The translations under genes were made by a program, and so were the position numbers. From Felixounavirus LF82P2, in the sequence record OZ035741.1: a stretch of 64,000 nt of DNA; one strand, 5' to 3'. Shown one piece after another: positions 2,927 to 63,585 of the stretch (the first letter of the stretch is position 1; each line of letters opens with the position of its first letter). Below the pieces are notes generated by a model. That model made no database searches. It had not been told where the DNA came from and was given only the letters and a program-made list of their open reading frames with translations.

Positions 2927-3472
2927 TCAAAAGTGTCCTTTTACTTGTGGAACATAGATTTCAAAGGTTGCTTTACCATCTACTGATGGTTTTGACTGAA
3001 TCTTAGCGAAAATTTGACGGTCATGCAACTTATCAAAGAAATTCTCAAAAGGTAGATGCACAGTTGCCTCTTCAGTAACTTCATGGAAAACTGTATGGAA
3101 CACTACATCAGCATACGGTAAAGCACTGACAAGAATACCTACACCACCAATTACGAAGACGTCTTCTTCAATATTACTATCAAGATACTTTAAAAATGCT
3201 CCAAAAGAATCTTGATGAGCCTTAGCAAACATAACATCATCTTTGGTGAAGTCCATACCATAATAAGGCACAGAATTTGTTAAGATGAGGTTTGTACGTT
3301 CTGGTAAAGGTTTATTGCCCAGAGTCTTAAAAGTCTCGTTACCCATAACTACTAAGTTGTCTTTAGTAAGTCTCTTAAACTCTTGCATATCCTGTTTATG
3401 TCTAGGCCACGGCATACCAGTCGGTGTACCAAATTCACCGTTTTCACCACTTGCAAATATTAGCTTAATCAT
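2927..3472 (-). CDS. frd: dihydrofolate reductase
   Basis: 181 aa; DHFR-like N-terminus (IKLIFA..GxxGxxxxMPW) and VVMGxxTF motif; adjacent to thyA. Confidence 0.8.
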   Translation of the reverse strand: MIKLIFASGENGEFGTPTGMPWPRHKQDMQEFKRLTKDNLVVMGNETFKTLGNKPLPERTNLILTNSVPYYGMDFTKDDVMFAKAHQDSFGAFLKYLDSNIEEDVFVIGGVGILVSALPYADVVFHTVFHEVTEEATVHLPFENFFDKLHDRQIFAKIQSKPSVDGKATFEIYVPQVKGHF

Positions 3473-3729
3473 TTTGTAAACCCTTTCTTAATGAACCAGT
3501 TGATGACACTCTTCACAGCTTTATTGCTATGGTAGATTAAGTGTGGTGTAGGTTGGTATGAACCATAAGCCCAGAAAGCAATGATTTCATTACACCCTGT
3601 ACACCTTGTACTCTCTTCAGCGATATGACCATTGACTATTTCACTTACCTCACCTTGCAAGTCTGTACATCCACAATGTGGACATCGGATAGGTGTTCCA
3701 TCAGACTCATAGCAGTGTTCAATTTTCAT
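3469..3729 (-). CDS. hypothetical zinc-ribbon protein
   Basis: CPHCGC ... CTGCN cysteine pairs. Confidence 0.35.
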   Translation of the reverse strand: MKIEHCYESDGTPIRCPHCGCTDLQGEVSEIVNGHIAEESTRCTGCNEIIAFWAYGSYQPTPHLIYHSNKAVKSVINWFIKKGFTK

Positions 3730-4245
3730 CTATTTAACCTCAAAAACTGGCTCAAGAACCAATATAAAGTCTACACAGTCATCTTCTTCATCCAGAATAC
3801 CATCAAAGTTCTTAGGAACGAAGTCGAAGAGGCTCATAACAAAACAGTCAGAAGTGACCCTGATAGTTCCTCCAATGTTCTCTACAGTTAACACTGTACG
3901 ACTTTCTTTTACCTCCCTCAGAAGATTACCCACAAAGTCATCTAAGAAGTACTTCATCAGTGACTTAAACCCTTTAGGATAATCTGTACCAGAGTATGTT
4001 TCAATCTGAGGCACAAGCTTAACATTTATACTAGTCTTTGTTAAGAACGTGTTAGAGAACATACTATCAGGTAACTTACAAACAGTCTTCCCAGTACCTT
4101 CATGTTCAATCTCAACAAAACCAGCTTCGTCGCCACATGTAACTATTTTAAAAGATGCTTCATTCTCATACTGTGAAGCCATAAACTTTTTAAGCATCTC
4201 TTTAAGGAAATCTGCATGAGCATCTTGTAAGTAGATATCAATCAT
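3730..4245 (-). CDS. hypothetical protein
   Basis: 171 aa ORF in minus-strand operon. Confidence 0.4.
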   Translation of the reverse strand: MIDIYLQDAHADFLKEMLKKFMASQYENEASFKIVTCGDEAGFVEIEHEGTGKTVCKLPDSMFSNTFLTKTSINVKLVPQIETYSGTDYPKGFKSLMKYFLDDFVGNLLREVKESRTVLTVENIGGTIRVTSDCFVMSLFDFVPKNFDGILDEEDDCVDFILVLEPVFEVK

Positions 4246-4258
4246 AGTTAATCACCTA

Positions 4259-4618
4259 TTATGGGAACAAACACTTAATGTCATCGTTTTTGAAAACGAA
4301 ACTTGTGTAGTTATGACCATCAACATCCAACCAAACAGCCTGAACATCTACACCATCAAGATTCTGGTAAAGCTCTTTGATGAAGTGGTCTTTCACAAGC
4401 TGACTGCTAGTTGTTTCCAGCTTAATGTTCGAGATTGCTGAACCTACAGCCATATAGCCCATGACACGTTTCTTCTCAGTATGCTTAATCTTACCATCTT
4501 TGTAAGCCATAATGAGATTGGAGAGAATCTTCACACCATAATACTTTTCAAGGTGAGTGGGTACGCCATAAAAGCCTAATGCGAAGTTTTCAGAGTGGAT
4601 AATGTTTTCACGTTTCAT
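4259..4618 (-). CDS. hypothetical protein
   Basis: 119 aa ORF in minus-strand operon. Confidence 0.4.
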   Translation of the reverse strand: MKRENIIHSENFALGFYGVPTHLEKYYGVKILSNLIMAYKDGKIKHTEKKRVMGYMAVGSAISNIKLETTSSQLVKDHFIKELYQNLDGVDVQAVWLDVDGHNYTSFVFKNDDIKCLFP

Positions 4619-4619
4619 A

Positions 4620-4949
4620 TTAATCTGCCAACCTTAAATTAAAATTAACACCAAATTTTTCACATACTTCCAACATATACTCAAGGGAGACGTTACCAGT
4701 GAGATGGATTATGTTGGATACACGAGCCTGAGAGATACCACAAATTTTAGCAACTTGCTCTTGAGAAAGACCTCTGGATTTAATCTCTCTCTTAAAACGA
4801 TGTGCAACGAAATCTCTCATTTCATCTACATCCATTGGACAAATATAACTCTCCATTTCAGCCTCTCTATCAGCCTCCCAATCATCTTGTGGAGCATAAG
4901 GGTCAAAAATCTCATTCATCTTTCTTCTTCCGTTTGCGTGAAGTGTCAA
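4620..4949 (-). CDS. helix-turn-helix DNA-binding protein (XRE-like)
   Basis: LSQEQVAKICGISQARVSNI helix-turn-helix-like segment. Confidence 0.45.
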   Translation of the reverse strand: MTLHANGRRKMNEIFDPYAPQDDWEADREAEMESYICPMDVDEMRDFVAHRFKREIKSRGLSQEQVAKICGISQARVSNIIHLTGNVSLEYMLEVCEKFGVNFNLRLAD

Positions 4950-5124
4950 TCAATGAATCTATGTTTGTAGCCCTAACCTTTTCACGTTCATCGTTAAGAT
5001 AATCGTCAAGAGCCTTTTCAATCTGTGAATCATCTTGACAGATGACTGTAAAGACTGTAAATCCGTCTGTATCGTCAATTATCTTACCATAACCGCTTCT
5101 GGGATGTAACTTTTTAAGAGCCAT
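4912..5124 (-). CDS. hypothetical protein
   Basis: 70 aa ORF; basic C-terminus. Confidence 0.3.
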   Translation of the reverse strand: MALKKLHPRSGYGKIIDDTDGFTVFTVICQDDSQIEKALDDYLNDEREKVRATNIDSLIDTSRKRKKKDE

Positions 5125-5125
5125 A

Positions 5126-5509
5126 TCAAATACCTGTGCAGCTTCTGTTTTCTAAGAAATACTCAACACCATACATAGCTTTTTGCATCAAATCTTCTTT
5201 AAACTGGATACGGTGGTTGAGCATAGTTTGTACATCAATATCGTCATGGTGTTTATCTTTAATATTTGCAGATTGCAGGAAATACTCTGCAAGAACACGA
5301 TATTGATAGTCAGTTACCTTATCAGTCATCTCTGTCAAAGACTCTTCAGAGATTGGTTTAAGTAGCTCACCTTTAGATAGAGCAACACCTTTAACAATCT
5401 GGCAAGTGTCTTCTGGGACACCTGATAAGTCCACATTGGGAAGTTCTGTTGCATTGACTGGTAAATTCATTGCCATAACCATTGCAGCAGCTAATAAAAT
5501 CTTTTTCAT
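5126..5509 (-). CDS. hypothetical secreted protein
   Basis: N-terminal signal-peptide-like MKKILLAAAMVMAMNLPVNA. Confidence 0.45.
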   Translation of the reverse strand: MKKILLAAAMVMAMNLPVNATELPNVDLSGVPEDTCQIVKGVALSKGELLKPISEESLTEMTDKVTDYQYRVLAEYFLQSANIKDKHHDDIDVQTMLNHRIQFKEDLMQKAMYGVEYFLENRSCTGI

Positions 5510-5599
5510 AATGACCTCAAAGTTATATTAAATTTTGTATTACGTTGAGTATAAAAATAAGCTATAACACCTGACTTGTCAACAGATTTTATAGCTTAT

Positions 5600-5900
5600 T
5601 TGGCAGATTTTTTATAAGGCTACTGCCATCCTTCCATACCTTACCTTACCACACCTAACCATACCTAACCAAACTACACCATACAATACCTTGTTAAAAG
5701 ACCCTTTTAAAGACATTTTAAAAAGGTAAGTCTCATTTTAATGTAGCTGAGACTAACTACCCTTACCTAACCTTACATCACCTTACAAAGCCAAACCTCA
5801 CAATACCGAACCATACCTAGCATCACTTAAAAACCCTCTTAAAAGACTCTTAAATGATGCTGGTGAGTACCCGTTGGTTTATGCTGCTCAGTATACTCAC
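5600..5900. repeat. two tandem ~140 bp units: C/A-rich ACCTAACC-type short repeats, then TTAAAAG-rich AT segment, then a hairpin
   Basis: Unit 1 about 5600-5760 (hairpin AGTCTCA..TGAGACT); unit 2 about 5760-5900 (hairpin GGTGAGTA..TACTCACC); no ORF. Confidence 0.5.
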
Positions 5901-11642: not shown

Positions 11643-11799
11643 GGTTTTTACTTAAAAGGTTACTTAACAGTTTAACTATACAGATACTTTAAAACTCTTA
11701 AAAGATTATTTAATAGCTTTTAAAAAGCTTTAAAGTATAACGTATAGAATACGTTAAGATAAAAGATTAAAACTTAATAGTTACTTAAAAGAGGCTTAC

Positions 11800-12222
11800 A
11801 TGCAGAAAATGTTTGTTCACCCAGACATAGCTGACTTTGTTAGAGCTTTGCAGAAGTTGGAAGAACTTGACATTGCTGCTCAGCGGGAATATGCTCACCA
11901 TCACAGGAGAATGGTTGATATACAACATGAAATAGAGTTGTCTGAAAACTATGAAGACGACTTAAAATGCTCTGTATTTGAGCATATGAAAGATGTTGCT
12001 ACAGCGAGACGTAAAGCTAAAGACACAGTTGCTTTACTAGATTCTCTTAAAAAGAGGTTGCAAAGTGGTACAGACCTGTGTAATCTAGCGTCACTGATTA
12101 ACGATGTTGAAACTTCTTGGGATAGGCACTATTATCCACGTTCTGAAAAGACACTTGACTTTTCTTCATCCGAAAACTTAAAATGTTCTAGAAAGAAACT
12201 TAACCAACTGAGAGAGAAATAA
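11800..12222 (+). CDS. hypothetical protein
   Basis: 140 aa ORF; first gene of plus-strand block. Confidence 0.4.
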   Translation: MQKMFVHPDIADFVRALQKLEELDIAAQREYAHHHRRMVDIQHEIELSENYEDDLKCSVFEHMKDVATARRKAKDTVALLDSLKKRLQSGTDLCNLASLINDVETSWDRHYYPRSEKTLDFSSSENLKCSRKKLNQLREK

Positions 12223-52924: not shown

Positions 52925-53389
52925 TTACTTTGGATATACACTGTCAAGATAAATGTCAGCTTCCATTCTACGTCTGTTTTTCAGGCCGTTTGAAGTGACT
53001 TTCTGACCTTTGACTGTAACCTTGTTCCACCACTGCATAGCCTCTGCACAACCTACCTTATTACCAGCGTTGTGGCGCTTGATAAATGTGGAATCCTGCA
53101 TAGCTGTGATACCAATGTTGTATGTTTCACTTACAAGTGCGTCAAACTCATTCTGAGAAGTTGGAACCTTGATGGCTTTGTTCACTGCTGCAACGAACTT
53201 TTCAACATCTGCGAGAAGATACTGTTCAGCTTGTTCAGCGGTAATCTTCATACCCATCTTAACAGGTTTACCAGCAATACGGATAGTCCCGTACCCAATT
53301 GTTGGGATTCCAGCAGAATCTTCGTAAGCCTCTAGCTTAAGACCTTCAAAGAACTTAATAGCTTCTAAACCTTTTCTTGAGAGTTGCAT
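52925..53389 (-). CDS. lysozyme (T4 e-like, GH24 endolysin)
   Basis: N-terminal LEAIKFFEGLKLEAYEDSAGIPTIGYGT matches catalytic Glu/Asp/Thr region of T4-type lysozymes. Confidence 0.75.
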   Translation of the reverse strand: MQLSRKGLEAIKFFEGLKLEAYEDSAGIPTIGYGTIRIAGKPVKMGMKITAEQAEQYLLADVEKFVAAVNKAIKVPTSQNEFDALVSETYNIGITAMQDSTFIKRHNAGNKVGCAEAMQWWNKVTVKGQKVTSNGLKNRRRMEADIYLDSVYPK

Positions 53390-54522
53390 TATGCCTCCCC
53401 TGCTGGGTTAACAGTAACTGTTGCTGCATTAGATGTTACAGAACCACCTGCACCAGTAACTACACAGGTGTAGCTTCCTGCATCAGCAGCGGTTGCACCT
53501 TCTTTGGTGTAAGTTGCAGTAGTTGCATCGAGGATGTCTTCCTCACCTTTCTTCCACTGGTAACCTGTCGCACCTGTTGCCACAACATTCAGCGTTAAGG
53601 TATCACCTTCAGTGATTTCTTGATTGGTTGGCTGTTGAGTGATTACTGGAAGTGCATTCACAGTTACTACAGCAGCATTAGATTCCACTACACCACCTGC
53701 ACCTGTTACAACGCAAGTGTATGAACCAGCATCTGCTGGCAGCGCACCAGACTTGCTATAGGTAGCATCTGTAGCCGAAGGAATGTCAGAGCCATCTTTC
53801 TTCCACTGGTAGCCTGTTGCACCTGTTGCAGTCACTTCCAAGTTAATGCTTTCACCCTCATTGATGGTCTGGCTAGAAGGTTGCTGTGTAATCACAGGCA
53901 GTGCGTTGACAGTAACTGTTGCCGCATCTGAGGTAACACTTGTCCCAGCCTCTCCAGACACAACACAAGTATAGGAACCAGCATCAGAAGGTGCTACAGA
54001 CTGTTTTGTGTAGGTTGCAGATGTGGCGCTAGTGATATCCTCACCATTCTTTTTCCATTGATATCCAGTGGCATTAGTTGCAATAACGCTTAGGGTAAGT
54101 GTGCCACCTTCATTTACTGTTTGGTTGGTTGGTTGCTGAGTGATTGATGGTGGCTTGATAGCATCCTTCAGCTTAGCATTCAACATTGAGAATGGCTTAA
54201 CTCTTGCCAACCATTCACAATAAACTGTATCAACGTCTTTACCATTGATAATTGCATATTGTAAGTCCATGAAGAAGTCAGAAGTTCTCATTTGAGCGCC
54301 GATGCTGTAAAGCAACTCATCACTAAATGGGACTTTATAGTCGGGTTTGTAGTCAAACTTCTCAACTTCTGCAATATCAGCTTCAGGCCAATATGAACTA
54401 TAGGTAAGTGGTAAAATAGCCTCTTGATATGTTCTAAAATCATATCTCTTACCAGCCTTTACATTTGCAATGAAACCCTTCACAAACTCTTTGAAGTCTG
54501 GGTAAGTCTTTGCTTTAATCAT
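53389..54522 (-). CDS. virion-associated protein with three Ig-like repeats (putative)
   Basis: Three tandem ~90 aa repeats each containing GATGYQWKK..DAGSYTCVV (Ig-like); N-terminal domain paralogous to 54519-54890. Confidence 0.5.
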   Translation of the reverse strand: MIKAKTYPDFKEFVKGFIANVKAGKRYDFRTYQEAILPLTYSSYWPEADIAEVEKFDYKPDYKVPFSDELLYSIGAQMRTSDFFMDLQYAIINGKDVDTVYCEWLARVKPFSMLNAKLKDAIKPPSITQQPTNQTVNEGGTLTLSVIATNATGYQWKKNGEDITSATSATYTKQSVAPSDAGSYTCVVSGEAGTSVTSDAATVTVNALPVITQQPSSQTINEGESINLEVTATGATGYQWKKDGSDIPSATDATYSKSGALPADAGSYTCVVTGAGGVVESNAAVVTVNALPVITQQPTNQEITEGDTLTLNVVATGATGYQWKKGEEDILDATTATYTKEGATAADAGSYTCVVTGAGGSVTSNAATVTVNPAGEA

Positions 54523-56147: not shown

Positions 56148-56519
56148 ATGAAAAACAGAACAAACAAAGGCCAGTTTAAAAAAGGCCAATCTGGAAACCC
56201 ATCTGGAAGACCAAAAGGCTCTCGCAACAAAAGCTCACTTGTAAAAGCTCAACTGACCATTGACAATTCTGCTGAGTTTGCTGCAAAGTTATTTGAAGCG
56301 ATTGTTACAAGGGATGCTGCTAAGCTTGCAGAGTTCGGGTTAAACACAGATGACGTAACCATCAAGAGTATGATTGAGGTCGGTAAAACTATCTTTACTC
56401 ACTCAGCAGGTGAGATGAAAGCACTTGCAGCAGACACTAAGAAGACTCCTGATAATGGTGGTCAACAACAGACAGATAACAAACCAACGTTCTCTGCTGT
56501 AGCGACTCTTAAAAAATAA
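56148..56519 (+). CDS. hypothetical protein with N-terminal GNPSGRPKG motif
   Basis: 123 aa ORF; basic Gly/Pro-rich N-terminus. Confidence 0.4.
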   Translation: MKNRTNKGQFKKGQSGNPSGRPKGSRNKSSLVKAQLTIDNSAEFAAKLFEAIVTRDAAKLAEFGLNTDDVTIKSMIEVGKTIFTHSAGEMKALAADTKKTPDNGGQQQTDNKPTFSAVATLKK

Positions 56520-56600
56520 TTTTAAAAGGTGTTGACAGACTCTATAAAGTTGCTCTAAAGTCTGTCACATCAAACAACAAATGAGAGAAGAGAGTAAAAT

Positions 56601-58016
56601 ATGAGCGAATTATTTAAACATGCGCACCTTCATGCAGGTCGAACTGAAAATGGTGCTGTAAACCATACTTCATCAATGTCTGCTCTTGTAGACTTTTACA
56701 AAGCTGCTGGTTCAAGCCGTAGCAATGTAGAAATCTTACCAGACCTGTTCTACAAAGCTTTGCGTGAGGATGTTGATGTTGCAGTTCGTATTTTACTGCA
56801 TATGCGAGATGTACGAGAAGGTATGGGTGAGCGTAAAGCCTTCAGAACTGTTTTGCTTCAAGCAATTGAAGATAAAGTTTTAGAGCCTACACAGGTTCTT
56901 CGCATTATGGATAAGATTGCAGAACTTGGTCGTTTTGATGACTTCAAAATCTTCGTAGGTACTCGTTTCGAGACAGATGCCTTCAAACATTTAGAAGCAG
57001 CATTACTAGACCCTGCAACAGCAGGTTTGGCAGCTAAGTGGTTACCACGAGTAAAACCACGTCACAAACAGTTTGTAAAACGTTTCTGCAAGTTTGCAAA
57101 CTTGAGTGAGAAGGAGTATCGCACACTGTTATCTGCACTGTCTGATACGGTTGAGCAAAAAATCTCTGCTAATGAGTTTGGTAAGATTGACTACAGTAAG
57201 ATTCCTTCACTTGCTGCTGCACGTTACCAAAAACTCTTTAACCGTAAAGATGGAGAACGCTACAAAGCTTACATTGAGTCCTTATCAAAGGGCGAGACTA
57301 AGATTAATGCTGGTGCTGTTTATCCATACGATGTGATTAAATCTGTTAAGTATGGTAATGCAGATGTTGCTAATGAGCAGTGGAAAGCACTACCAAACTG
57401 GATGGCAGAGGGTGAAAACATTCTATGTATGTCTGATGTTTCAAGTTCAATGTCTTGGGTGAATTTTGGTTCAATTACTGCTCTTGATATTGGTGTTTCA
57501 CTTGCATTGTATGTAGCAGAACGTAATACAGGTTGCTTTAAGAATGAGTTGATGGTTTATTCAACAAACCCTCACTTCATTGAACTGAGTGGTGATTTAC
57601 GAAACCGTCATCGTCAGGTGATGCGACACGTTGAATATGGCTCAACTAACTTACAAGCAGCTTTTGACCGTATTCTTGAGACAGGTAAAAGAAACAACTT
57701 GACTCAGAAAGATATGCCAAGTAAGCTTATCATCTTCTCCGATATGGAGTTCAATCAGGTTGATGGAGCTAACGGTCGTACAAACTTTGAAGCAATTCAG
57801 AGTAAGTACAAAAAAGCTGGATATGAGATGCCACAACTGGTATTCTGGTACTTAGCAAACCGTAATGGTACTTGCGAAGTATCTGTTAAGGATAACGGTG
57901 TAGCAATGGTATCAGGGTTCTCTCCAGCCACTTTAAAAGCTCTGCTTGGTGGTGAGAAGTTTGACCCAATCAGTGTAATGCTCAAAGCAGTAATGATTGA
58001 CCGTTATATCTGGTAA
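56601..58016 (+). CDS. von Willebrand factor A (vWA) domain protein
   Basis: 471 aa; MIDAS-like DVSSSMS (DxSxS) near residue 280 followed by Rossmann-like pattern; helical N-terminal domain. Confidence 0.4.
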   Translation: MSELFKHAHLHAGRTENGAVNHTSSMSALVDFYKAAGSSRSNVEILPDLFYKALREDVDVAVRILLHMRDVREGMGERKAFRTVLLQAIEDKVLEPTQVLRIMDKIAELGRFDDFKIFVGTRFETDAFKHLEAALLDPATAGLAAKWLPRVKPRHKQFVKRFCKFANLSEKEYRTLLSALSDTVEQKISANEFGKIDYSKIPSLAAARYQKLFNRKDGERYKAYIESLSKGETKINAGAVYPYDVIKSVKYGNADVANEQWKALPNWMAEGENILCMSDVSSSMSWVNFGSITALDIGVSLALYVAERNTGCFKNELMVYSTNPHFIELSGDLRNRHRQVMRHVEYGSTNLQAAFDRILETGKRNNLTQKDMPSKLIIFSDMEFNQVDGANGRTNFEAIQSKYKKAGYEMPQLVFWYLANRNGTCEVSVKDNGVAMVSGFSPATLKALLGGEKFDPISVMLKAVMIDRYIW

Positions 58017-58035
58017 AAAGTTTTAAAAAGGGTAT

Positions 58036-58064
58036 TGACAATGTGTTTAATACCCTTTAATATG
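58036..58064 (+). promoter_or_regulatory. sigma70-like promoter (TTGACA-17-TAATAT) upstream of tRNA cluster
   Basis: Consensus -35 and near-consensus -10. Confidence 0.45.
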
Positions 58065-58171
58065 TTCTACATAGAAGCGAAATGAGAGCTTTTCTAAGAT
58101 ACTGAAAAATATTTTAAAAAAGCTCTTGACAACCACTAAAAAATAATGTTAAAGTGGTTACATAGAGTTTG

Positions 58172-58248
58172 AAAAGTTTATCTCTGTTTAGCTCAGCTTG
58201 GTAGAGCGTTCCGTTTGGGGCGGTAAGGCCGGAGGTTCAAGTCCTCCA
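58172..58248 (+). tRNA. tRNA-Pro (anticodon TGG)
   Basis: 7 bp acceptor stem, T-loop GGTTCAAGTCC, anticodon loop TTTGGGG, encoded CCA. Confidence 0.7.
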
Positions 58249-58265
58249 ACAGAGACCAAATTAAT

Positions 58266-58343
58266 GTTCCAGTAGACAAAATGGTATAGTCACCACTCTT
58301 TCAAAGTGGACATCTGAGGGTTCAAATCCCTTCTGGAACGCCA
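58266..58343 (+). tRNA. tRNA-Glu (anticodon TTC)
   Basis: Acceptor GTTCCAG/CTGGAAC, anticodon stem CCACT/AGTGG, loop CTTTCAA. Confidence 0.65.
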
Positions 58344-58434
58344 GTTTTGACAGAAGACCAAATACAGCAAACTTAATCTTATTCATCTGAAGGTAAATCG
58401 GACAAAGAAGAGATTTGGTCTGGTCATTAAGAAT

Positions 58435-58511
58435 TGCGGGTATAGAGAAAGGGCGTCTCACATGTCTCATTAGCATGGTATCGGCAGGTTCGACTCCTGC
58501 ACCCGCCTCCA
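58435..58511 (+). tRNA. tRNA-Met (anticodon CAT), atypical (T at position 37, mismatch at pair 1-72)
   Basis: Anticodon stem CATGT/GCATG, loop CTCATTA, T-loop GGTTCGACTCC. Confidence 0.5.
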
Positions 58512-58594
58512 AATTTACAGAAGACCGTTTACAGCAACATTTATTAAATTTTTAGCGGAAAAATTGAAAGATACGGTCTGGTAATACTAAACAT

Positions 58595-58671
58595 GGTTAG
58601 GAAGCACATAAGGTATGTGCGGTCGCCTGTTAAGCGAATGGCACAGGGTTCGAATCCCTGACTAACCGCCA
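58595..58671 (+). tRNA. tRNA-Asn (anticodon GTT)
   Basis: Anticodon loop CTGTTAA; T-loop GGGTTCGAATCCC; CCA encoded. Confidence 0.65.
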
Positions 58672-58740
58672 AATTTAGGAGAGAAGCGATTGCTCACCGA
58701 TTTGTAAGGTGCAAGTCCTTAGCCTGAATAGAAATTAAAT

Positions 58741-58828
58741 GTGTCGTTATCCCGTAGATGGTAGCGGTGGGGACTGTAAATCCCTTGTCATTGAGACTCG
58801 GTAGGTTCGACTCCTACACGGCACACCA
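58741..58828 (+). tRNA. tRNA-Tyr (anticodon GTA), long variable arm
   Basis: Acceptor GTGTCGT/ACGGCAC, anticodon stem GGGGA/TCCCT loop CTGTAAA, 88 nt. Confidence 0.7.
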
Positions 58829-58833
58829 ATAAA

Positions 58834-58911
58834 GGTTATGTAGTTTAATTTGGTTAAAATACTCCCCTGTCACGGGAGATGATGAGGGTTCAAATCCCTT
58901 CGTAACCGCCA
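58834..58911 (+). tRNA. tRNA-Asp (anticodon GTC)
   Basis: Acceptor GGTTATG/CGTAACC, anticodon stem CTCCC/GGGAG loop CTGTCAC. Confidence 0.7.
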
Positions 58912-59081
58912 ATTTTGAGAGGGCTATTTAGCCCCTCCCTTAAAGGGTTCTTACGAGTATCCTTTAAAGGAGCAGAAGACCAAATACAGCAAGTTACTTA
59001 AAATTTCAAGCCAATTTAATTTTGAAAAATTTAAAACTTGGTCTGGCTCAACAAATTTACAGAAGACCGTTTACAGCAAAA

Positions 59082-59178
59082 CTTAAACAATCTATTTCTC
59101 GGTAAAGAAAAGGCGAAGGTTCGATTCCTTCACTCGGCAGATGTCGAGTTGGTGTAATGGTAGCACTTAAGATGATAA
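59082..59178 (+). pseudogene. tRNA halves in permuted order (3' half upstream of 5' half); possible circularly permuted tRNA or rearranged pseudogene
   Basis: 3' part 59082-59139 (CTTAA, variable-arm hairpin, T-arm GAAGG-TTCGATT-CCTTC, acceptor ACTCGGC) then 5' part 59143-59178 (acceptor GTCGAGT, D-arm, TTAAG, loop ATGATAA). Confidence 0.35.
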
Positions 59179-59339
59179 ACAACGGTCTGGTAATTATCTT
59201 TGTAGATAAGTTATTAAGCTTACCTGTGAGTATGCGACCACAAAGGGTGAAAGGGTAAATTCTAGATTTAAACCCAAAAAGGCACATCGCTACAGACCTT
59301 AAGCAAGTCTGGGTAGCTTATCTACAAAGATAATTTAAT

Positions 59340-59415
59340 GGAAGTGTAGCAGAATGGTGATGCGGCAGACTTTTAATCTGACAGGCGATGGGTTCGAATC
59401 CCTCCACTTCTACCA
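59340..59415 (+). tRNA. tRNA-Lys (anticodon TTT)
   Basis: Acceptor GGAAGTG/CACTTCT, anticodon loop CTTTTAA, T-loop GGGTTCGAATCCC. Confidence 0.65.
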
Positions 59416-59419
59416 ATAT

Positions 59420-59496
59420 GGTTCAGTCGCAGATAAGGTAATGCAAGGGTCTCATAAGCCCTATGAATGTGGGTTCGAATCCCATCTGAACCTCCA
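59420..59496 (+). tRNA. tRNA-Met (anticodon CAT), GGG/CCC anticodon stem (initiator-like feature)
   Basis: Anticodon arm AGGGT-CTCATAA-GCCCT; acceptor GGTTCAG/CTGAACC fully paired. Confidence 0.65.
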
Positions 59497-59498
59497 AT

Positions 59499-59573
59499 TG
59501 TGGGTTAGCATAAATGGTAATGCAAACGGCTGATAACCGTTAGAAGAGGGTTCGATACCCTCACCTACAACCA
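59499..59573 (+). tRNA. tRNA-Ile (anticodon GAT)
   Basis: Anticodon arm AACGG-CTGATAA-CCGTT; T-loop GGGTTCGATACCC. Confidence 0.7.
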
Positions 59574-59591
59574 AGTTCAATAAAGTTGTTG

Positions 59592-59620
59592 ACATTGAGA
59601 TGTGACTACTTTATAGTAAC
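59592..59620 (+). promoter_or_regulatory. sigma70-like promoter inside tRNA cluster (TTGACA-17-TATAGT)
   Basis: Consensus -35 and good -10 in spacer after tRNA-Ile. Confidence 0.45.
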
Positions 59621-59821
59621 CTTAGTTTTCGTTGCGTAGCGTCTATTTTGCAAATTTAAAATAAATGCAAACGACAATGTTTTTCTGGCAGTAGCTTGAT
59701 AGGCTAAACACCAGTGAGGTCTTCCAATCCCTCATCAAAGAATTTGGCGTACTCGCCCACGGTATGATTAATAAGGTGGGCATCTTTAAGGGCTTTCTAA
59801 GAGAGTCTTTAAAGATAATTA

Positions 59822-59903
59822 CGGGGCGTATCTCAGCGGTCTTCTAAACCGCCGTTAACCGAGTAAGTGGAGTATGCGGGTTCGAGTCCTGCCGCCTCGA
59901 CCA
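59822..59903 (+). tRNA. atypical tRNA-like gene (possible Arg, anticodon TCT), non-canonical arm arrangement
   Basis: Acceptor CGGGGCG/CGCCTCG plus T-arm GCGGG-TTCGAGT-CCTGC and CCA; perfect hairpin GCGGT-CTTCTAA-ACCGC sits where the D-arm should be. Confidence 0.4.
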
Positions 59904-60046
59904 ATTTAGTTAGCAGATTACTTAGACGACCTAAGCGGGTCTTCCTGTAGGGAGGTGGTCTGTATCTCATGTTTTCCAGAACATGTAAATAATCTGAGAA
60001 GGGGCTTTACAGTGTTGAGATAATACGGTAAGCTTCGAATTATAGT

Positions 60047-60129
60047 ATGGGACGATGTTAAGACTCTAAGGCATGAGCAACGGCCTCCAAAACCGTTTCA
60101 AAGGGGTTCAACTCCTCCGTCCCATGCCA
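60047..60129 (+). tRNA. tRNA-Trp (anticodon CCA), enlarged D region (83 nt)
   Basis: Perfect acceptor ATGGGAC/GTCCCAT, anticodon arm ACGGC-CTCCAAA-ACCGT, T-loop GGGGTTCAACTCC. Confidence 0.5.
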
Positions 60130-60142
60130 AAGTCTTATTAGG

Positions 60143-60230
60143 GGTAGGTAGCGGCTAATGGCAGCCAAACAGTCTTGAAAACTGTTGCCACTGTAGAGAT
60201 ACGGTGAGGGTTCGACTCCTTTACTTACCG
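60143..60230 (+). tRNA. tRNA-Ser (anticodon TGA), long variable arm, CCA not encoded
   Basis: Anticodon arm ACAGT-CTTGAAA-ACTGT; long variable arm; T-loop GGGTTCGACTCC. Confidence 0.65.
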
Positions 60231-60488
60231 CCTAATAAGATTTTTAAAGCCAAGCTTCATTCGGATGTTGCTTTGGTATCCCTCGTGTATTGTCGTACAC
60301 ACTGATAAAACACCTAGTAGGTGTCACGGAGAAGAGATAATATCAAGCTCTCCAAAGGTTCTAGTCACCGGATTAAACAAGACTATGCAAAGACCTTTTA
60401 GGTCTTTTTAGAGGGCTTCTAAGGTTATTACAGCTTGTTGTGGAACCTTGTTGCTTAGGTTCTTAGAAGTTCTCTAAAAAGATTTAAT

Positions 60489-60566
60489 GGGAGATTGACG
60501 GTAATTGGTAAACCTATCTCGCTTAGAACGAGATGTTTGAGGGTTCGAATCCCTTGTCTCCTACCA
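60489..60566 (+). tRNA. tRNA-Leu (anticodon TAG) with short variable loop
   Basis: Anticodon arm TCTCG-CTTAGAA-CGAGA perfect; discriminator A; T-loop GGGTTCGAATCCC. Confidence 0.55.
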
Positions 60567-60573
60567 AATTAAT

Positions 60574-60649
60574 GCAGGTGTAGCAAAATGGTTATGCGGC
60601 TGACTCTTAATCAGTAAGACGATGGGTTCAATTCCCTCCACCTGTACCA
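60574..60649 (+). tRNA. tRNA-Lys (anticodon CTT)
   Basis: Scaffold similar to tRNA-Lys(TTT); anticodon arm GCTGA-CTCTTAA-TCAGT. Confidence 0.55.
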
Positions 60650-60655
60650 AACAAT

Positions 60656-60731
60656 GGGGTCATAGTTTATATGGTTAAAATTCGAGTTTTGCAAACTTGG
60701 GAACTGAGTTCAATTCTCAGTGACTCCACCA
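60656..60731 (+). tRNA. tRNA-Ala (anticodon TGC)
   Basis: Acceptor GGGGTCA/TGACTCC with G3-T70 wobble; anticodon loop TTTGCAA. Confidence 0.65.
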
Positions 60732-60737
60732 ATTAGT

Positions 60738-60812
60738 GCATCCATAGTTTAAACGGGAAAATTACAGTCTTCCAAACTGAGGTTGAGGGTTCGATTCCCT
60801 CTGGATGCTCCA
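60738..60812 (+). tRNA. tRNA-Gly (anticodon TCC)
   Basis: Acceptor GCATCCA/TGGATGC; anticodon arm ACAGT-CTTCCAA-ACTGA. Confidence 0.65.
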
Positions 60813-60826
60813 AATTAAGGTGTGAT

Positions 60827-61240
60827 ATGAAAATATGCAGTACTTGCAGAATACCAAAAGATGAAAGCTTATTCCATAAGAATAAGAACAAGAAAGACGG
60901 TCTTCAAAGTCAATGCAAAGATTGTGCAAGACTCCGTGATGCAAAGAGTTATCAAGCAAATGATAAAAGGAAAGAGGCTATTAAAAGCACTCGTAACTTC
61001 AAGAGAGAGCATAACAAGACTCTAGCTAGAAGGTACAAAGCTTTATGCAAATGTCATATATGTGGTGAGAAAGAACCAGTTGCACTGGATTTACACCATA
61101 CAGACCCTTCCCAGAAAGATTTGAATCCTGCATCACTTTATTCATACTCCACAAAAAGATTAAAAGATGAAATCAGAAAGTGCATTGTCTTGTGCGCTAA
61201 CTGTCACAGAAAAGTACATGCTGGTATCATAAAAGTTTAA
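60827..61240 (+). CDS. HNH endonuclease embedded in tRNA cluster
   Basis: Cys-rich N-terminus and C-terminal DLHHTD..CANCHRKVH HNH motif. Confidence 0.6.
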   Translation: MKICSTCRIPKDESLFHKNKNKKDGLQSQCKDCARLRDAKSYQANDKRKEAIKSTRNFKREHNKTLARRYKALCKCHICGEKEPVALDLHHTDPSQKDLNPASLYSYSTKRLKDEIRKCIVLCANCHRKVHAGIIKV

Positions 61241-61241
61241 T

Positions 61242-61318
61242 GCTGCTTTCGTATAATTGGCTATTACACATCCCTTGTAAGGATGGAAATGCAGGTTCGA
61301 GTCCTGTGAGCAGCACCA
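61242..61318 (+). tRNA. tRNA-Thr (anticodon TGT)
   Basis: Anticodon arm CATCC-CTTGTAA-GGATG; T-loop GGTTCGAGTCC. Confidence 0.7.
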
Positions 61319-61413
61319 ATTCAGAGGTCAAGTGAAAGACCGCTGGTGTCAACTGAAGACCGTAACAAATTCCACGGAGTTGAGTTAGCGGCACAACTTC
61401 AGACCTCTTTCAT

Positions 61414-61488
61414 ACTCGCTTAGTTTATATGGTAAAACATCACCCTTACAAGATGAAGAAAAAGGTTCAAGTCCTTTAGTGAGTACCA
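61414..61488 (+). tRNA. tRNA-Val (anticodon TAC), one mismatch in anticodon stem
   Basis: Acceptor ACTCGCT/AGTGAGT; anticodon arm TCACC-CTTACAA-GATGA (C-A mismatch). Confidence 0.5.
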
Positions 61489-61489
61489 T

Positions 61490-61567
61490 GTTCCAGTATC
61501 CCAATTGGCAGAGGATGCAAGCTCAAACCTTGTACTAGTGACGGTTCGAATCCGTCTTGGAACACCA
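61490..61567 (+). tRNA. tRNA-Leu (anticodon CAA) with short variable loop
   Basis: Anticodon arm GCAAG-CTCAAAC-CTTGT; discriminator A; T-loop GGTTCGAATCC. Confidence 0.55.
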
Positions 61568-61572
61568 ATTTT

Positions 61573-61648
61573 GCAGGATTAGTTCAAATGGATAGAGCAA
61601 CAGTCTACGAAGCTGTTAATAGGGGTTCGAATCCCTTATCCTGCGCCA
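61573..61648 (+). tRNA. tRNA-Arg (anticodon ACG)
   Basis: Acceptor GCAGGAT/ATCCTGC; anticodon arm ACAGT-CTACGAA-GCTGT. Confidence 0.7.
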
Positions 61649-61667
61649 ATTTAAAGAGGCTATTTAG

Positions 61668-62225
61668 ATGAGATATTTGAAGTATGCTTCATGGATTTTC
61701 TTAGCTTTGTTAGAACCATTTGCAGCAATCTTAGCAGTTATCTTAGCACCTTTTGTAGTTCCATTTTACAGTGAGAAGAAAGGACACTTACCTTTCGGAT
61801 TTAGATGGATGGAAACTTATGACAACCCAATTGATGGTGATGAAGGTCACGTTAAAAGATGGGCTAATATTAGATGGATTGGTAAGCTTGGTGTCTATAT
61901 GCAGAGAGTCGGTTGGCTCTGGAGAAACAAAGCTTATAACTTCTCTTACCATGTGTTAGGAAGAGATGTAAAAGATGTTACTAAGTGGAAAGGTAATATC
62001 AACGTAAGTTCTAACCCTGAAGATAATCAGACAGGTTATCTCCTAATGTGGAACAGCAATGCTTGGGGATTATTCGCTTTTATACCATCAATTAAAATCT
62101 TTGGTAAACAGTTCTACTGGAGAATTTATATTGGGTGGAAGCTAAAAAGTGTTGTCCCAGAAGAAAGAGCATTCTCAAGGGAAAGAGTTATGTTGGCATT
62201 CTTTATTCATCCACTAAGAAATTAA
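61668..62225 (+). CDS. hypothetical membrane protein embedded in tRNA cluster
   Basis: 185 aa; hydrophobic N-terminal segment, Trp-rich. Confidence 0.4.
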   Translation: MRYLKYASWIFLALLEPFAAILAVILAPFVVPFYSEKKGHLPFGFRWMETYDNPIDGDEGHVKRWANIRWIGKLGVYMQRVGWLWRNKAYNFSYHVLGRDVKDVTKWKGNINVSSNPEDNQTGYLLMWNSNAWGLFAFIPSIKIFGKQFYWRIYIGWKLKSVVPEERAFSRERVMLAFFIHPLRN

Positions 62226-62233
62226 AGATTTAA

Positions 62234-62309
62234 AGGGGATTAGTTTACAAGGTTAAAACCTCGGTCTTTGAAATCGAAGAAGTTGGTTCAATTCCAACAT
62301 CCCCCGCCA
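62234..62309 (+). tRNA. tRNA-Gln (anticodon TTG)
   Basis: Anticodon arm TCGGT-CTTTGAA-ATCGA; T-loop GGTTCAATTCC; pair 1-72 mismatched. Confidence 0.6.
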
Positions 62310-62311
62310 AT

Positions 62312-62390
62312 GCTCCATTACTCCAATTGGCAGAGAGGCCAGACTTAAAATCTGTGTTATGTATCGGTTCGAATCCGATATGGAGTACCA
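62312..62390 (+). tRNA. tRNA-Leu (anticodon TAA) with intermediate-length variable region
   Basis: Anticodon loop CTTAAAA; discriminator A; D region similar to tRNA at 61490. Confidence 0.5.
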
Positions 62391-62395
62391 AATTT

Positions 62396-62471
62396 AGCGG
62401 TATAGCATAACTGGCAATGCAACAGTCTCTGAAGCTGTCTTATTAAGGTTCAAATCCTTATGCCGCTGCCA
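62396..62471 (+). tRNA. tRNA-Gln (anticodon CTG)
   Basis: Anticodon arm ACAGT-CTCTGAA-GCTGT; T-loop GGTTCAAATCC. Confidence 0.55.
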
Positions 62472-62502
62472 CTTCTAAGGGTTCTTACGAGAGTCCTTAA
62501 AT

Positions 62503-62578
62503 GTGGCCTTATCATAAATGGTAATGACCCATGCTGTGAACATGGTCTATACGGGTTCAAATCCCGTAGGTCACCCCA
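62503..62578 (+). tRNA. tRNA-His (anticodon GTG)
   Basis: Anticodon arm CCATG-CTGTGAA-CATGG; discriminator C. Confidence 0.7.
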
Positions 62579-62583
62579 ATTTA

Positions 62584-62660
62584 TAGTCCAAGTAGCTTAT
62601 ATGGTTAAAGCGCGTGTCTGAAAAACATGAGAAGAGGGTTCAAATCCCACTGGACTACCA
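62584..62660 (+). tRNA. tRNA-Phe (anticodon GAA)
   Basis: Acceptor TAGTCCA/TGGACTA; anticodon loop CTGAAAA. Confidence 0.6.
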
Positions 62661-62676
62661 ATTTCAAAGGTGCTTA

Positions 62677-63411
62677 ATGAAAGAGATGACAGAACAAGGT
62701 AAGGAGATTTTTAATCTCTTAAAAACCGGTAAAGGGTTTTCTAACCCACTTATTACTGGTGCAGCAGTTCTCGGTGGAACCGTAGCTGCTTCTACATCAC
62801 TTGTAAGCTCTATTAGTTCTGTAACAGACCCTACAATGCAGGAGAAACTTGTTGCTGCTGGACTTACAACAGTCCTTCTAAACAGCTTTACAACAAGCCT
62901 TACAAGCACTACAGCAACTACTAAGACCCTGACAGACTACGGTCAAAAATCTATTGATGAGTTTTCATCACGTATGCAGGTAGCAAAGGGATATTCCAAT
63001 GTTATGGGTGCAGCAGGAGAACAAGTTGGTTGTACACCGTTCAGTGGTATTATGGGTGTTGCTACAGAATATGGTCAAAAAGCTATTGATACGATTAACA
63101 GTACACTAGAGAGTGTTAACAATGTATTAAGTGACTTACAAGACGCTATTGACAAGGGTCTTGATACTGTTTCTGATTTAGCTAACCAAGCTGTCAGTAA
63201 GATTAATGAAGGTATCTCAAAGATTACAGCTTATGCAGATGAAGTTGTGCAGATGATTGAAGAAGAATCTGCCCTTATTGCAGAGTACCTTAAAACGAAT
63301 ATCAATGGGTTCTTAGCAGGTATCTTACCAGACTGGTTTGATGATGCCTGTAAAACTGGTGTAATTGACACTATTGCAACACCAGAAATGAAGAACGCAT
63401 TACAGAAATAA
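62677..63411 (+). CDS. hypothetical protein embedded in tRNA cluster
   Basis: Track ORF 62614-63411 overlaps tRNA-Phe; start moved to ATG 62677 after AAAGG RBS; Thr/Ser-rich then helical. Confidence 0.45.
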   Translation: MKEMTEQGKEIFNLLKTGKGFSNPLITGAAVLGGTVAASTSLVSSISSVTDPTMQEKLVAAGLTTVLLNSFTTSLTSTTATTKTLTDYGQKSIDEFSSRMQVAKGYSNVMGAAGEQVGCTPFSGIMGVATEYGQKAIDTINSTLESVNNVLSDLQDAIDKGLDTVSDLANQAVSKINEGISKITAYADEVVQMIEEESALIAEYLKTNINGFLAGILPDWFDDACKTGVIDTIATPEMKNALQK

Positions 63412-63412
63412 T

Positions 63413-63505
63413 GGAAGATTAACCCTAAAAGGTAAGGGAGCAGTTTGCTAAACTGACAGTAGCTGAGAAATCGGTGTACCAGTTCAAGTCTGGTATCTTC
63501 CTCCA
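63413..63505 (+). tRNA. tRNA-Ser (anticodon GCT), long variable arm
   Basis: Perfect acceptor GGAAGAT/ATCTTCC; anticodon loop TTGCTAA; 93 nt. Confidence 0.65.
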
Positions 63506-63509
63506 ATTT

Positions 63510-63585
63510 GAATCCGTGACAGAAATGGCTATGTGCCTGTCTGCAAAACAGGTTTATAAGGGTTCGAGTCCCTTCGGATTCTCCA
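63510..63585 (+). tRNA. tRNA-Cys (anticodon GCA)
   Basis: Acceptor GAATCCG/CGGATTC; anticodon arm CCTGT-CTGCAAA-ACAGG. Confidence 0.7.

Follow-up and report, generated by a model that had tools for sequence, protein, structure and literature searches.

The analysed window is a 64-kb stretch (64,000 nucleotides, nt) of Felixounavirus LF82P2 (sequence record OZ035741.1), and the subject of this analysis is a gene at 56601..58016 on the plus strand together with the transfer RNA (tRNA) cluster that follows it. The gene starts with ATG and encodes a putative Ro60-like protein of 471 amino acids (aa), the orthologue of gp130 in phage Bas63, with a helical ring-type N-terminal domain (DUF2828) and a von Willebrand A (vWA) domain carrying a MIDAS, or metal ion-dependent adhesion site (DUF7788). 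A total of 25 tRNA genes, all co-oriented with this gene, were predicted by ARAGORN at 58182..63585 (plus strand), in agreement with Rfam; the first starts 166 nt past the stop codon. The cluster is broken by three protein open reading frames (ORFs), including one for an HNH endonuclease (PHROGs). An earlier note, made from the letters alone, had placed the gene next to a tRNA cluster that also holds non-tRNA structured elements. Such elements are present in the tRNA-free gaps, where four modules, named M1 to M4, were identified.

The ORF at 56601..58016 is not a chance reading frame, because its product has 2545 homologues at E≤1e-3 out of 8000 candidates scored and tblastn matches in at least 709 phage records. 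Over 4.5 kb compared, the window is 100% identical to Felixounavirus LF82P1 and shares 96–98% identity with many Felix O1-type coliphages and Salmonella phages. The protein has been deposited in databases as 'vWFA protein', 'RNA-binding protein' or 'hypothetical protein'. No model for the 471-aa protein was found in NCBIfam, and a full-text literature search for DUF2828 and DUF7788 returned nothing relevant. In PHROGs the protein is assigned to phrog_850, 'RNA-binding protein' (E 4e-184). The hmmscan search against Pfam identified DUF7788 in the C-terminal half (E 1.8e-43) and DUF2828 in the region preceding it (E 3.9e-29), in keeping with the likeness to phage DUF-type vWA proteins that the earlier note had pointed out. 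In an alignment of 40 homologues sharing 40–89% identity with the query, the MIDAS signature DxSxS...T...D is complete, with D279, S281, S283, T349 and D381 all invariant; the motif DVSSSMS corresponds to residues 279–285. The helical half contains many invariant arginine and lysine residues, for example R40, the stretch R69-D-x-R-x-G-x-G-E-R78, R111, K146 and R150.

The AlphaFold2 model computed from this alignment has a predicted local distance difference test score (pLDDT) of 89.9 and a predicted template modelling score (pTM) of 0.89. According to DSSP, residues 28–263 of the model are nearly all helix and residues 274–448 form an alpha/beta vWA fold; alignment and model thus agree with the helical N-terminal domain and C-terminal vWA domain with a MIDAS-like motif proposed from the sequence. 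A Foldseek search of the model against PDB returned Ro60/TROVE proteins as all top 12 chains (Xenopus, human, Deinococcus Rsr and Thermus phage phiLo), matched over their full length (approximately 510–567 aligned columns including gaps) with E values of 5e-9 to 3e-7. Matches ranked below them cover the vWA domain alone, with E>1e-3. The Ro60 match covers the whole protein, N-terminal domain included, and the helical ring followed by the vWA domain superposes on solved Ro60 structures. Structure prediction thus places the N-terminal domain with the RNA-binding Ro60 ring and not in a non-RNA-binding family. At the sequence level, a single-sequence search against PDB sequences gave no match, and a profile search gave five non-significant matches (E 0.2–1.9), four of which are Ro60/TROVE (E 0.7–1.9); the two Ro60 alignments printed from the latter search both lie on the MIDAS strand. 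Taken together, the model suggests that the protein is a divergent Ro60-type protein consisting of a helical ring and a vWA/MIDAS domain, assigned to DUF2828/DUF7788. The resemblance to TROVE/Ro60-type proteins claimed in the earlier note therefore holds at the level of the fold, by Foldseek on the AlphaFold model, and does not extend to a Pfam TROVE match; of the profile families it had named, the DUF families were found and TROVE was not. The protein is not a member of TROVE as defined by Pfam. A generic vWA cochaperone, either paired with a MoxR-type AAA+ ATPase gene or fused to non-Ro domains, was also considered and found no support: the N-terminal domain matches Ro60, and no ATPase gene recurs next to the gene in the 76 phage sources and 80 bacterial loci described below.

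The four modules lie between 58348 and 59193 and share the layout ...CAGAAGACC(n2-4)UACAGCAA ... (n2-4)GGUCUGG.... Their common fold consists of a 4-bp helix P0, an AGA/G internal loop, a helix P1 (AGACC.../...GGUCU) and a single-stranded UACAGCAA. M1 (58348..58426, plus strand), a putative short Y-like RNA, has P0 UGAC/GUCA, the AGA/G internal loop, P1 AGACCAAAU/AUUUGGUCU and a single-stranded ACAGCAA, and occupies the spacer between tRNA-Glu and tRNA-Met. M2 (58515..58584, plus strand), also a putative short Y-like RNA, has P0 UUAC/GUAA, P1 AGACCGU/ACGGUCU and UUACAGCAA, and occupies the spacer between tRNA-Met and tRNA-Asn. Both M1 and M2 reach within 3–10 nt of the flanking tRNAs. M3 (58970..59049, plus strand), the third short one, has P0 GAGC/GCUC, P1 AGACCAA/UUGGUCU and AUACAGCAA, and adjoins M4. 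P0 differs from copy to copy yet stays complementary in each, and the inner pairs of P1 co-vary between copies (AAAU/AUUU, GU/AC, AA/UU and GUU/AAC). The exact gapped pattern AGAAGACC...UACAGCAA...GGUCUGG is matched by the three short copies M1 to M3; 100 shuffles of the window produced 0 matches. M4 exceeds the gap of this pattern and was identified through the direct repeat and a covariance model.

M4 (59057..59193, plus strand) is a putative long, YrlA-like RNA. It contains the closing helices P0 and P1, UACAGCAA, a small hairpin resembling a variable (V) arm, a T arm, a closed acceptor-like hairpin, a D arm and the 3' strand of P1. The T arm at 59115-59131 is perfect (GAAGG-UUCGAUU-CCUUC). 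It is followed by a 7-bp acceptor-like hairpin closed by a tetraloop (59132-59149) and by a D arm at approximately 59151-59167, which has an AAUGGUA loop and is preceded by U-G. This order shows that M4 holds a tRNA-like domain circularly permuted at the anticodon stem, that is, a tRNA mimic. Its predicted fold has a free energy of −33.4 kcal/mol (z −2.3). The sequence GGCGAAG in M4 was considered as the YrlA motif GNCGAA and was rejected; the homologous position in other modules is the variable loop and T stem of the tRNA-like domain. The Rfam search of the window, run at the gathering threshold and at E≤10, returned only tRNAs and noise and no Y_RNA or YrlA match. Because Rfam matched none of them, the modules belong to no curated family.

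To place the modules in a wider context, relatives of the gene were fetched from 80 viral loci, with about 6 kb on each side of the gene and less at contig ends. A total of 75 of these loci are distant (38–47% identity) and, together with the window, make up the 76 phage sources. T-arm-like hairpins outside called tRNAs were found 54 times, all on the strand of the gene. The same layout recurs with unrelated helix sequences: a 7-bp helix, UUNCAGCAA, a spacer, the T arm, the closed acceptor hairpin, the D arm (UAGCUCAGuUGGUAGAGC), the 3' strand of the helix and a G. A first module scanner, with a 6-bp seed and a loose motif, was dominated by noise (635 plus-strand versus 571 minus-strand matches) and was replaced by T-arm-anchored extraction, the covariance models R1 and R2, and a strict scan. 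Seventeen distant long modules, M4 and 16 distant homologues, were aligned with MAFFT independently of any structure, and the alignment was folded with RNAalifold. P1, the T arm and the D arm were recovered, and 14 of 15 pairs show double changes. In this alignment 91.9% of the cells are paired, versus 63% in shuffles, and 78 cells carry double changes, versus 22.7 in shuffles, with 0 of 500 shuffles reaching 78. When the structures were slid by 1–3 columns, only 34–48% were paired. The pairing and covariation result was repeated on 142 distinct sequences. The modules are therefore an RNA family with strong covariation in the form of compensatory base changes, and its conserved 5' element is WWWCAGCAA following the 7-bp helix.

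When both strands of 928 kb were searched with the R1 model, 148 matches had E≤1, and all 148 lie on the gene strand. Many of them are short versions of 45–90 nt, reduced to P1 and the CAGCAA motif. The R2 model, built from all R1 matches, gave 117 matches, again all on the gene strand, and recovered all four window modules. M1 scored 26.9 bits with R1 and 30.1 bits with R2, M2 scored 32.6 and 32.3 bits, and M4 scored 88 bits (E 9e-16) and 59.4 bits; M3 scored 28.7 bits with R2. As an independent test, 80 loci taken from bacterial genomes and metagenome-assembled genomes were searched, yielding 123 matches, all 123 on the gene strand, in 65 loci, with 63 loci positive within 500 nt of the gene. 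These loci carry 1–5 copies each, and CAGCAA is present in 95 of the 123 matches. The strict scan requires the 7-bp helix, then a linker of 2–4 nt, CAGCAA and a closing strand with G after it. Its matches on the gene strand outnumber those on the opposite strand by 83 to 7 in phage loci and by 134 to 9 in bacterial loci. In the 64-kb window this model-free scan returned the four modules and one stray match in a coding region.

Among the 76 phage sources the module is present in 59, within 100 nt of the gene in 42 and within 500 nt in 53. No protein family neighbours the gene in more than 17 of the 76 sources, which makes the RNA module the only conserved companion of the gene in phages. The partnership with structured elements suggested in the earlier note is thus supported by co-occurrence in phages and bacteria, by strand and by covariation. 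A different reading is that the protein acts on tRNAs or pre-tRNAs as a chaperone or in quality control, with the modules as decoys, access gates or unrelated elements. Co-oriented tRNA clusters come immediately downstream of the gene here and in 23 of the 75 distant phage loci, with every tRNA co-oriented with the gene, and the Ro60 cavity takes up misfolded RNAs while Y RNAs gate access to it (PMC4201824). Against this, the other 52 of the 75 loci have no tRNA cluster within the region fetched; tRNA-less phage loci also carry the module, starting 20–30 nt past the stop codon of the gene, and in bacterial loci the gene is accompanied by modules and RtcB, not by tRNA genes. We regard a role on tRNAs in place of the modules as very improbable, although it is compatible with protein–module binding and hard to separate from it computationally.

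RtcB (Pfam E 3e-58) is the most frequent neighbour in the 80 bacterial loci, encoded on the same strand a few tens of nucleotides downstream of the gene in 18–20 loci. WYL- or WCX-domain regulators lie upstream of the gene in 13–14 loci, and a P-loop kinase or RNA-ligase-like gene occurs in a few. In one example (locus L125), a module at 2937-3012 is followed by the gene at 3067-4470 and RtcB at 4503-5714. Clostridia and other bacteria (loci L085–L164, for example L125 2937-5714 and L154 1554-3718) show an apparent operon of WYL/WCX regulators, 1–5 modules, the DUF2828 gene and RtcB. The bacterial DUF2828 loci parallel the Salmonella rtcR-rsr-yrlB-yrlA-rtcB-rtcA RNA-repair operon (PMC4201824, PMC7790460). 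This neighbourhood agrees with the RNA quality-control context that had been hypothesized for the protein, and through its bacterial link with RtcB and WYL regulators the DUF2828 family is connected to RNA repair.

The position of the modules relative to the gene also bears on their function. In approximately 18 phage loci at most 20 nt separate the end of a module from the DUF2828 start codon that follows it, with the Shine-Dalgarno sequence directly after the 3' strand of P1 (for example ...CCUGAAGGAaaauaaaAUG), and in 61 of the 65 positive bacterial loci the nearest module lies upstream of the gene. GGUGGA or GGCGGA often follows downstream modules as well. The modules abutting the ribosome-binding site suggest co-transcription with the gene and possibly autoregulation. 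The modules could accordingly be cis operators or elements of the 5' untranslated region instead of stable trans-acting RNAs, with the protein acting as a translational (auto)repressor on P1/CAGCAA and the Felix O1-type copies in tRNA spacers being relics or processing signals. However, none of the four window modules adjoins a ribosome-binding site, since all lie between tRNAs; 2–5 tandem copies are common in the loci; and the long modules keep the tRNA tertiary-contact nucleotides in an elaborate tRNA-like domain that an operator would not need. We consider an operator role unlikely as the full explanation. It is in any case a variant of protein–module partnership, because the protein must still bind RNA.

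Ro60/Y-RNA particles are conserved from bacteria to humans, and their mechanism is poorly understood. Their phage versions have been studied only recently (Thermus phage phiLo, 2025). TROVE-type Ro60 proteins with Y-like RNAs have been reported in mycobacteriophages, CcrColossus, Bacillus phage G and Thermus phage phiLo (PMC4201824, PMC12135203). The window protein shares the ring and vWA/MIDAS fold with Ro60/Rsr of Salmonella, which is accompanied by YrlA and YrlB, and with Ro60 of phiLo, accompanied by Yrl1 and Yrl2. Like the Y RNAs of Rsr and phiLo, the modules are encoded within a few hundred nucleotides of the gene, on the same strand, and have their 5' and 3' ends paired in a closing helix. 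As with YrlA and YrlB, one class of modules has a permuted tRNA-like domain in the order T arm, acceptor stem and D arm (T-AS-D) and one class lacks it; M1 to M3, without a tRNA-like domain, resemble YrlB-type RNAs. RtcB is included in both the bacterial rsr operon and the bacterial DUF2828 loci. Unlike Ro60/Rsr, the window protein has no match to the TROVE hidden Markov model and has a shorter helical domain of approximately 270 aa, and its modules are embedded in a tRNA operon, unlike YrlA of Salmonella and Yrl1/Yrl2 of phiLo.

The YrlA-type architecture was recovered in the long modules, in which the T arm, the closed acceptor stem-loop and the D arm follow one another inside a helix formed by the ends, with the consensus GGUUCGAnUCC and UAGnnnAGnUGGUAGnGC; the P1, T and D helices all covary. 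With the YrlA model (RF02553), whose gathering score is 69 bits, long modules in four other loci gave sub-threshold matches of 24.7–39.2 bits, and M4 in the window was not detected at E≤10. Aligned to the YrlA consensus, the long modules share the T-AS-D core. The GNCGAA(N)G motif, proposed as the Rsr-binding site of YrlA, is missing from the 5' strand of the module terminal stem. In place of the GNCGAA-containing terminal stem of YrlA, the modules have P1 and the single-stranded UACAGCAA. A different binding element beside a sequence-divergent Ro60-like protein would resemble a co-evolving protein–RNA pair.

Related proteins in other phages were also compared. The 'Ro-like RNA binding protein' of actinobacteriophages (Kingsolomon gp54 and LeBron gp53) has the same DUF2828+DUF7788 architecture and shares 34% identity with the window protein over the full length; Kingsolomon gp54 has no TROVE match at E≤10. 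Two modules of this RNA family, one long and one short, come after its gene, and a score of 78.8 bits was obtained for a module there. The Kingsolomon gene differs from that in the window in heading no tRNA cluster, with a single tRNA-Tyr about 1.2 kb upstream, and in host and phage lineage. LeBron gp53 is reported only as moderately toxic when overexpressed (PMC13148394). Proteins of jumbo phages have been termed 'ROT/TROVE' (PMC7824862), and judging from this term, DUF2828 may already have been merged with Ro/TROVE in an earlier comparative study. The T5 tRNA region (locus L165, NC_005859 30284-33083 and 40848-41566) contains eight annotated 'stable RNAs with unknown functions', several of them tRNA-like. 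Like M1 to M4, RNAI, RNAIII, RNA1, RNA2 and others in this region are small non-tRNA RNAs among phage tRNA genes. None of the T5 stable RNAs matches the module family, the strict scan finds nothing on the T5 tRNA-gene strand, and no T5-type phage is among the tblastn matches to the protein listed.

A phenotype is known for the orthologue of this gene. The window protein and bas63_0130 of Bas63 (Escherichia phage JohannRWettstein) are identical at 461 of 471 residues (98%) in the same synteny; in Bas63, too, the gene lies directly upstream of the same tRNA cluster, and the same four modules are present. Gene 130 of Bas63 counters the defence system Ppl, which consists of one protein combining ATPase and PHP domains. 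When the gene is deleted, plaques on a Ppl host are reduced to tiny ones, and complementation brings back normal plaques; gp130 by itself, whether supplied on a plasmid or built into T7, restores T7 plaquing on a Ppl host (PMC11482910). The PhageMaP preprint reporting this also noted the structural similarity of gp130 to Ro60 and proposed partner Y RNAs among the downstream genes (PMC11482910). Both the Ro60/Y-RNA idea and the anti-Ppl phenotype are thus already published for this gene, through its 98%-identical orthologue. The preprint guessed that some annotated tRNA genes are Y RNAs, whereas the candidates described here are unannotated spacer elements. It also proposes an inhibition of DNA degradation by Ppl, a model in which the RtcB RNA-repair context plays no part. 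In Bas63 (locus L084 20749-21023, equal to MZ501086 82748-83022), two minus-strand coding sequences, bas63_0137 and bas63_0138 (153 and 111 nt), are annotated over the stretch of M3 and M4. Both are probably false calls across a stretch of non-coding RNA, and their knock-out scores in genome-wide screens may actually report on the RNAs.

The T7 experiment bears on a reading in which the protein blocks Ppl by direct protein contact through its vWA/MIDAS face, and the RNAs are spacers, degenerate tRNAs or by-products of the tRNA operon. The rescue by gp130 alone fits such an action, and the vWA/MIDAS domain is a classic protein-interaction module with many vWA-only structural matches. The T5 region can be read both ways: it shows that a phage tRNA region can carry stable RNAs where the protein is not found among the matches listed, and it carries no module. 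The module also accompanies the gene in tRNA-less loci and in bacteria, where the neighbour is an RNA ligase; purifying selection acts on a helix and a 6–8-nt single-stranded motif; and the whole protein, beyond the vWA domain, matches the RNA-binding Ro60 ring. We find direct contact without a role for the RNAs decidedly unlikely. The three alternatives discussed above are not mutually exclusive with protein–RNA binding.

Overall, we consider it probable that the protein forms ribonucleoprotein particles with four phage-encoded Y-like RNAs, M1 to M4. Several observations weigh against this. The Ro60 relationship rests on predicted structure, and hmmscan at E≤1 found no TROVE match (PF05731), with DUF7788 and DUF2828 as the sole Pfam matches. 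Scores of 28–32 bits for M1 to M3 are unconvincing on their own, because R2 gives T5 tRNA genes up to 27 bits; the support for these three comes mainly from the exact motif and the pairing. No module was detectable in 17 of the 76 phage sources and 15 of the 80 bacterial loci. The modules abutting the ribosome-binding site also fit a purely cis-regulatory role. Finally, since gp130 alone rescues T7, its anti-Ppl activity needs no M1 to M4 unless host RNAs substitute for them; either Ppl inhibition is independent of RNA, for example through the MIDAS face, or host RNAs substitute.

The fold, the RNA family with its covariation, the linkage of gene and RNA, and the RtcB context were computed here, and from them we infer binding, a processing route and a molecular activity for the proposed particle. 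M1 to M4 would be transcribed together with the tRNA cluster and freed by processing of the flanking tRNAs. As M1 and M2 fill tRNA spacers, ordinary tRNA 5' and 3' processing would release RNAs with base-paired ends. Two base-paired ends are a hallmark of Y RNAs. The predicted protein-binding site is the base of the RNA, consisting of P1 (consensus 5'-AGR-NNNN ... NNNN-YCU-G) and the adjacent single-stranded UACAGCAA, and binding there is predicted to be analogous to that of Ro60 on the terminal helix of Y RNAs. The permuted tRNA-like domain of M4 could recruit tRNA-recognising host factors or an exoribonuclease. The particle would most likely act in RNA surveillance, repair or decay during infection, to the benefit of the phage, and the published anti-Ppl phenotype may be one read-out of this RNA activity.

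Other features were predicted around the gene and within the cluster. A sigma-70-like promoter candidate, TTGACA-18-TAAAGT (10/12 consensus), lies at 56532..56561 on the plus strand, 40 nt upstream of the start codon; the count of sigma-70-like sites in the region is not above chance, and only position singles this one out. Two tandem promoter-like sites (58035-58063 and 58126-58155; 58035..58155, plus strand), which may be promoters, lie in a direct repeat of 27 nt located between the gene and the first tRNA. The best sigma-70-like match of the region, TTGACA-17-TATAGT (11/12), falls midway through the tRNA cluster at 59589-59617 (plus strand), where a 570-nt stretch without tRNA genes begins. 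Directly upstream of the Ro60-like gene and co-oriented with it, the ORF at 56148-56519 (plus strand) encodes a 123-aa DUF5681 protein (phrog_4114) whose N terminus (KGQSGNPSGRPKGSRNK) is very basic; among the 76 sources it is not a conserved neighbour of the Ro60-like gene beyond Felix O1-type phages.

Within the cluster, the HNH endonuclease ORF (60827-61240, plus strand; 137 aa; phrog_2255, E 1.6e-40) lies between tRNA-Gly, ending at 60812, and tRNA-Thr, starting at 61242. It looks like a homing-endonuclease insertion in the tRNA operon, because in phage adrianh tRNA-Gly and tRNA-Thr are adjacent without the ORF. Two weak tRNA-like elements not called by ARAGORN, at 59822-59900 (Rfam tRNA, 31.7 bits) and 60049-60123 (tRNA-Sec, 23 bits), both on the plus strand, may be degenerate or unusual tRNAs; Bas63 has an annotated tRNA-Arg (AGA) at about the same place in the cluster as the first. 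Directly after M4, a long hairpin at 59192-59335 (plus strand) has a 22-bp stem, 95% complementary, that encloses 100 nt. Near its 3' side is a miniature AGAC-CUUAAGCAA-GUCUGG hairpin resembling the P1/GCAA/GGUCUGG signature of the modules, and the covariance models gave no match to the long hairpin. An inverted repeat of 26 nt, 85% complementary with a 38-nt loop, is located at 60398-60487 (plus strand) just upstream of tRNA-Leu(tag), where Rfam gives only spurious miRNA-family matches. On the minus strand, the ORF at 53389-54522 (377 aa) contains three tandem Ig-like repeats of approximately 90 aa ('...ITQQP(S/T)NQ...GATGYQWKK...DAGSYTCVV...'). The repeat number varies among close relatives, as the gene is 633 nt long in adrianh and 1383 nt in Bas63. 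No RNA ligase or polynucleotide kinase is annotated in the first 45 kb of Felixounavirus Mushroom. Approximately 4 kb downstream of its DUF2828 gene, one of the related viral contigs (L021) carries a group I intron (11696-11922), whose Rfam score of 71.5 bits exceeds the gathering score.

Within the literature searched, the candidate partner RNAs, a distinct covarying CAGCAA-type RNA family outside Rfam, its near-universal linkage to DUF2828 in phages and bacteria and the RtcB/WYL operon context appear to be new; part of this may have been anticipated by Burroughs & Aravind 2016 or in the supplementary tables of Chen et al. 2014. In the Felixounavirus genomes now employed in therapy and typing, the modules either lack annotation or are wrongly annotated as short ORFs on the reverse strand. 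The DUF2828 family had a clean genetic phenotype (Ppl sensitivity upon its loss in Bas63, and protection transferable to T7) but no identified RNA partner. The coordinates of four candidate partner RNAs, a candidate binding element (P1 and UACAGCAA) and covariance models are now supplied, so that the protein–RNA partnership is directly testable in a tractable E. coli phage. More tentatively, and with doubt outweighing confidence, the DUF2828/DUF7788 proteins and the P1-UACAGCAA RNAs may together be a second, sequence-distinct Ro60/Y-RNA lineage, unrecognised as such, that is present in at least 709 sequenced phages (Felix O1-, KVP40-, A511- and mycobacteriophage L-type) and hundreds of bacterial species; in bacteria it would belong to WYL-regulated RtcB operons, and in phages the particle, not the bare protein, would be an RNA-level counter-defence. 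The RtcB/WYL context raises the possibility that Ppl is an RNA-directed defence. If the particle is indeed an RNA-level counter-defence, Ppl, with its ATPase and PHP phosphoesterase domains, would act on RNA, or be triggered through it, rather than degrade DNA.

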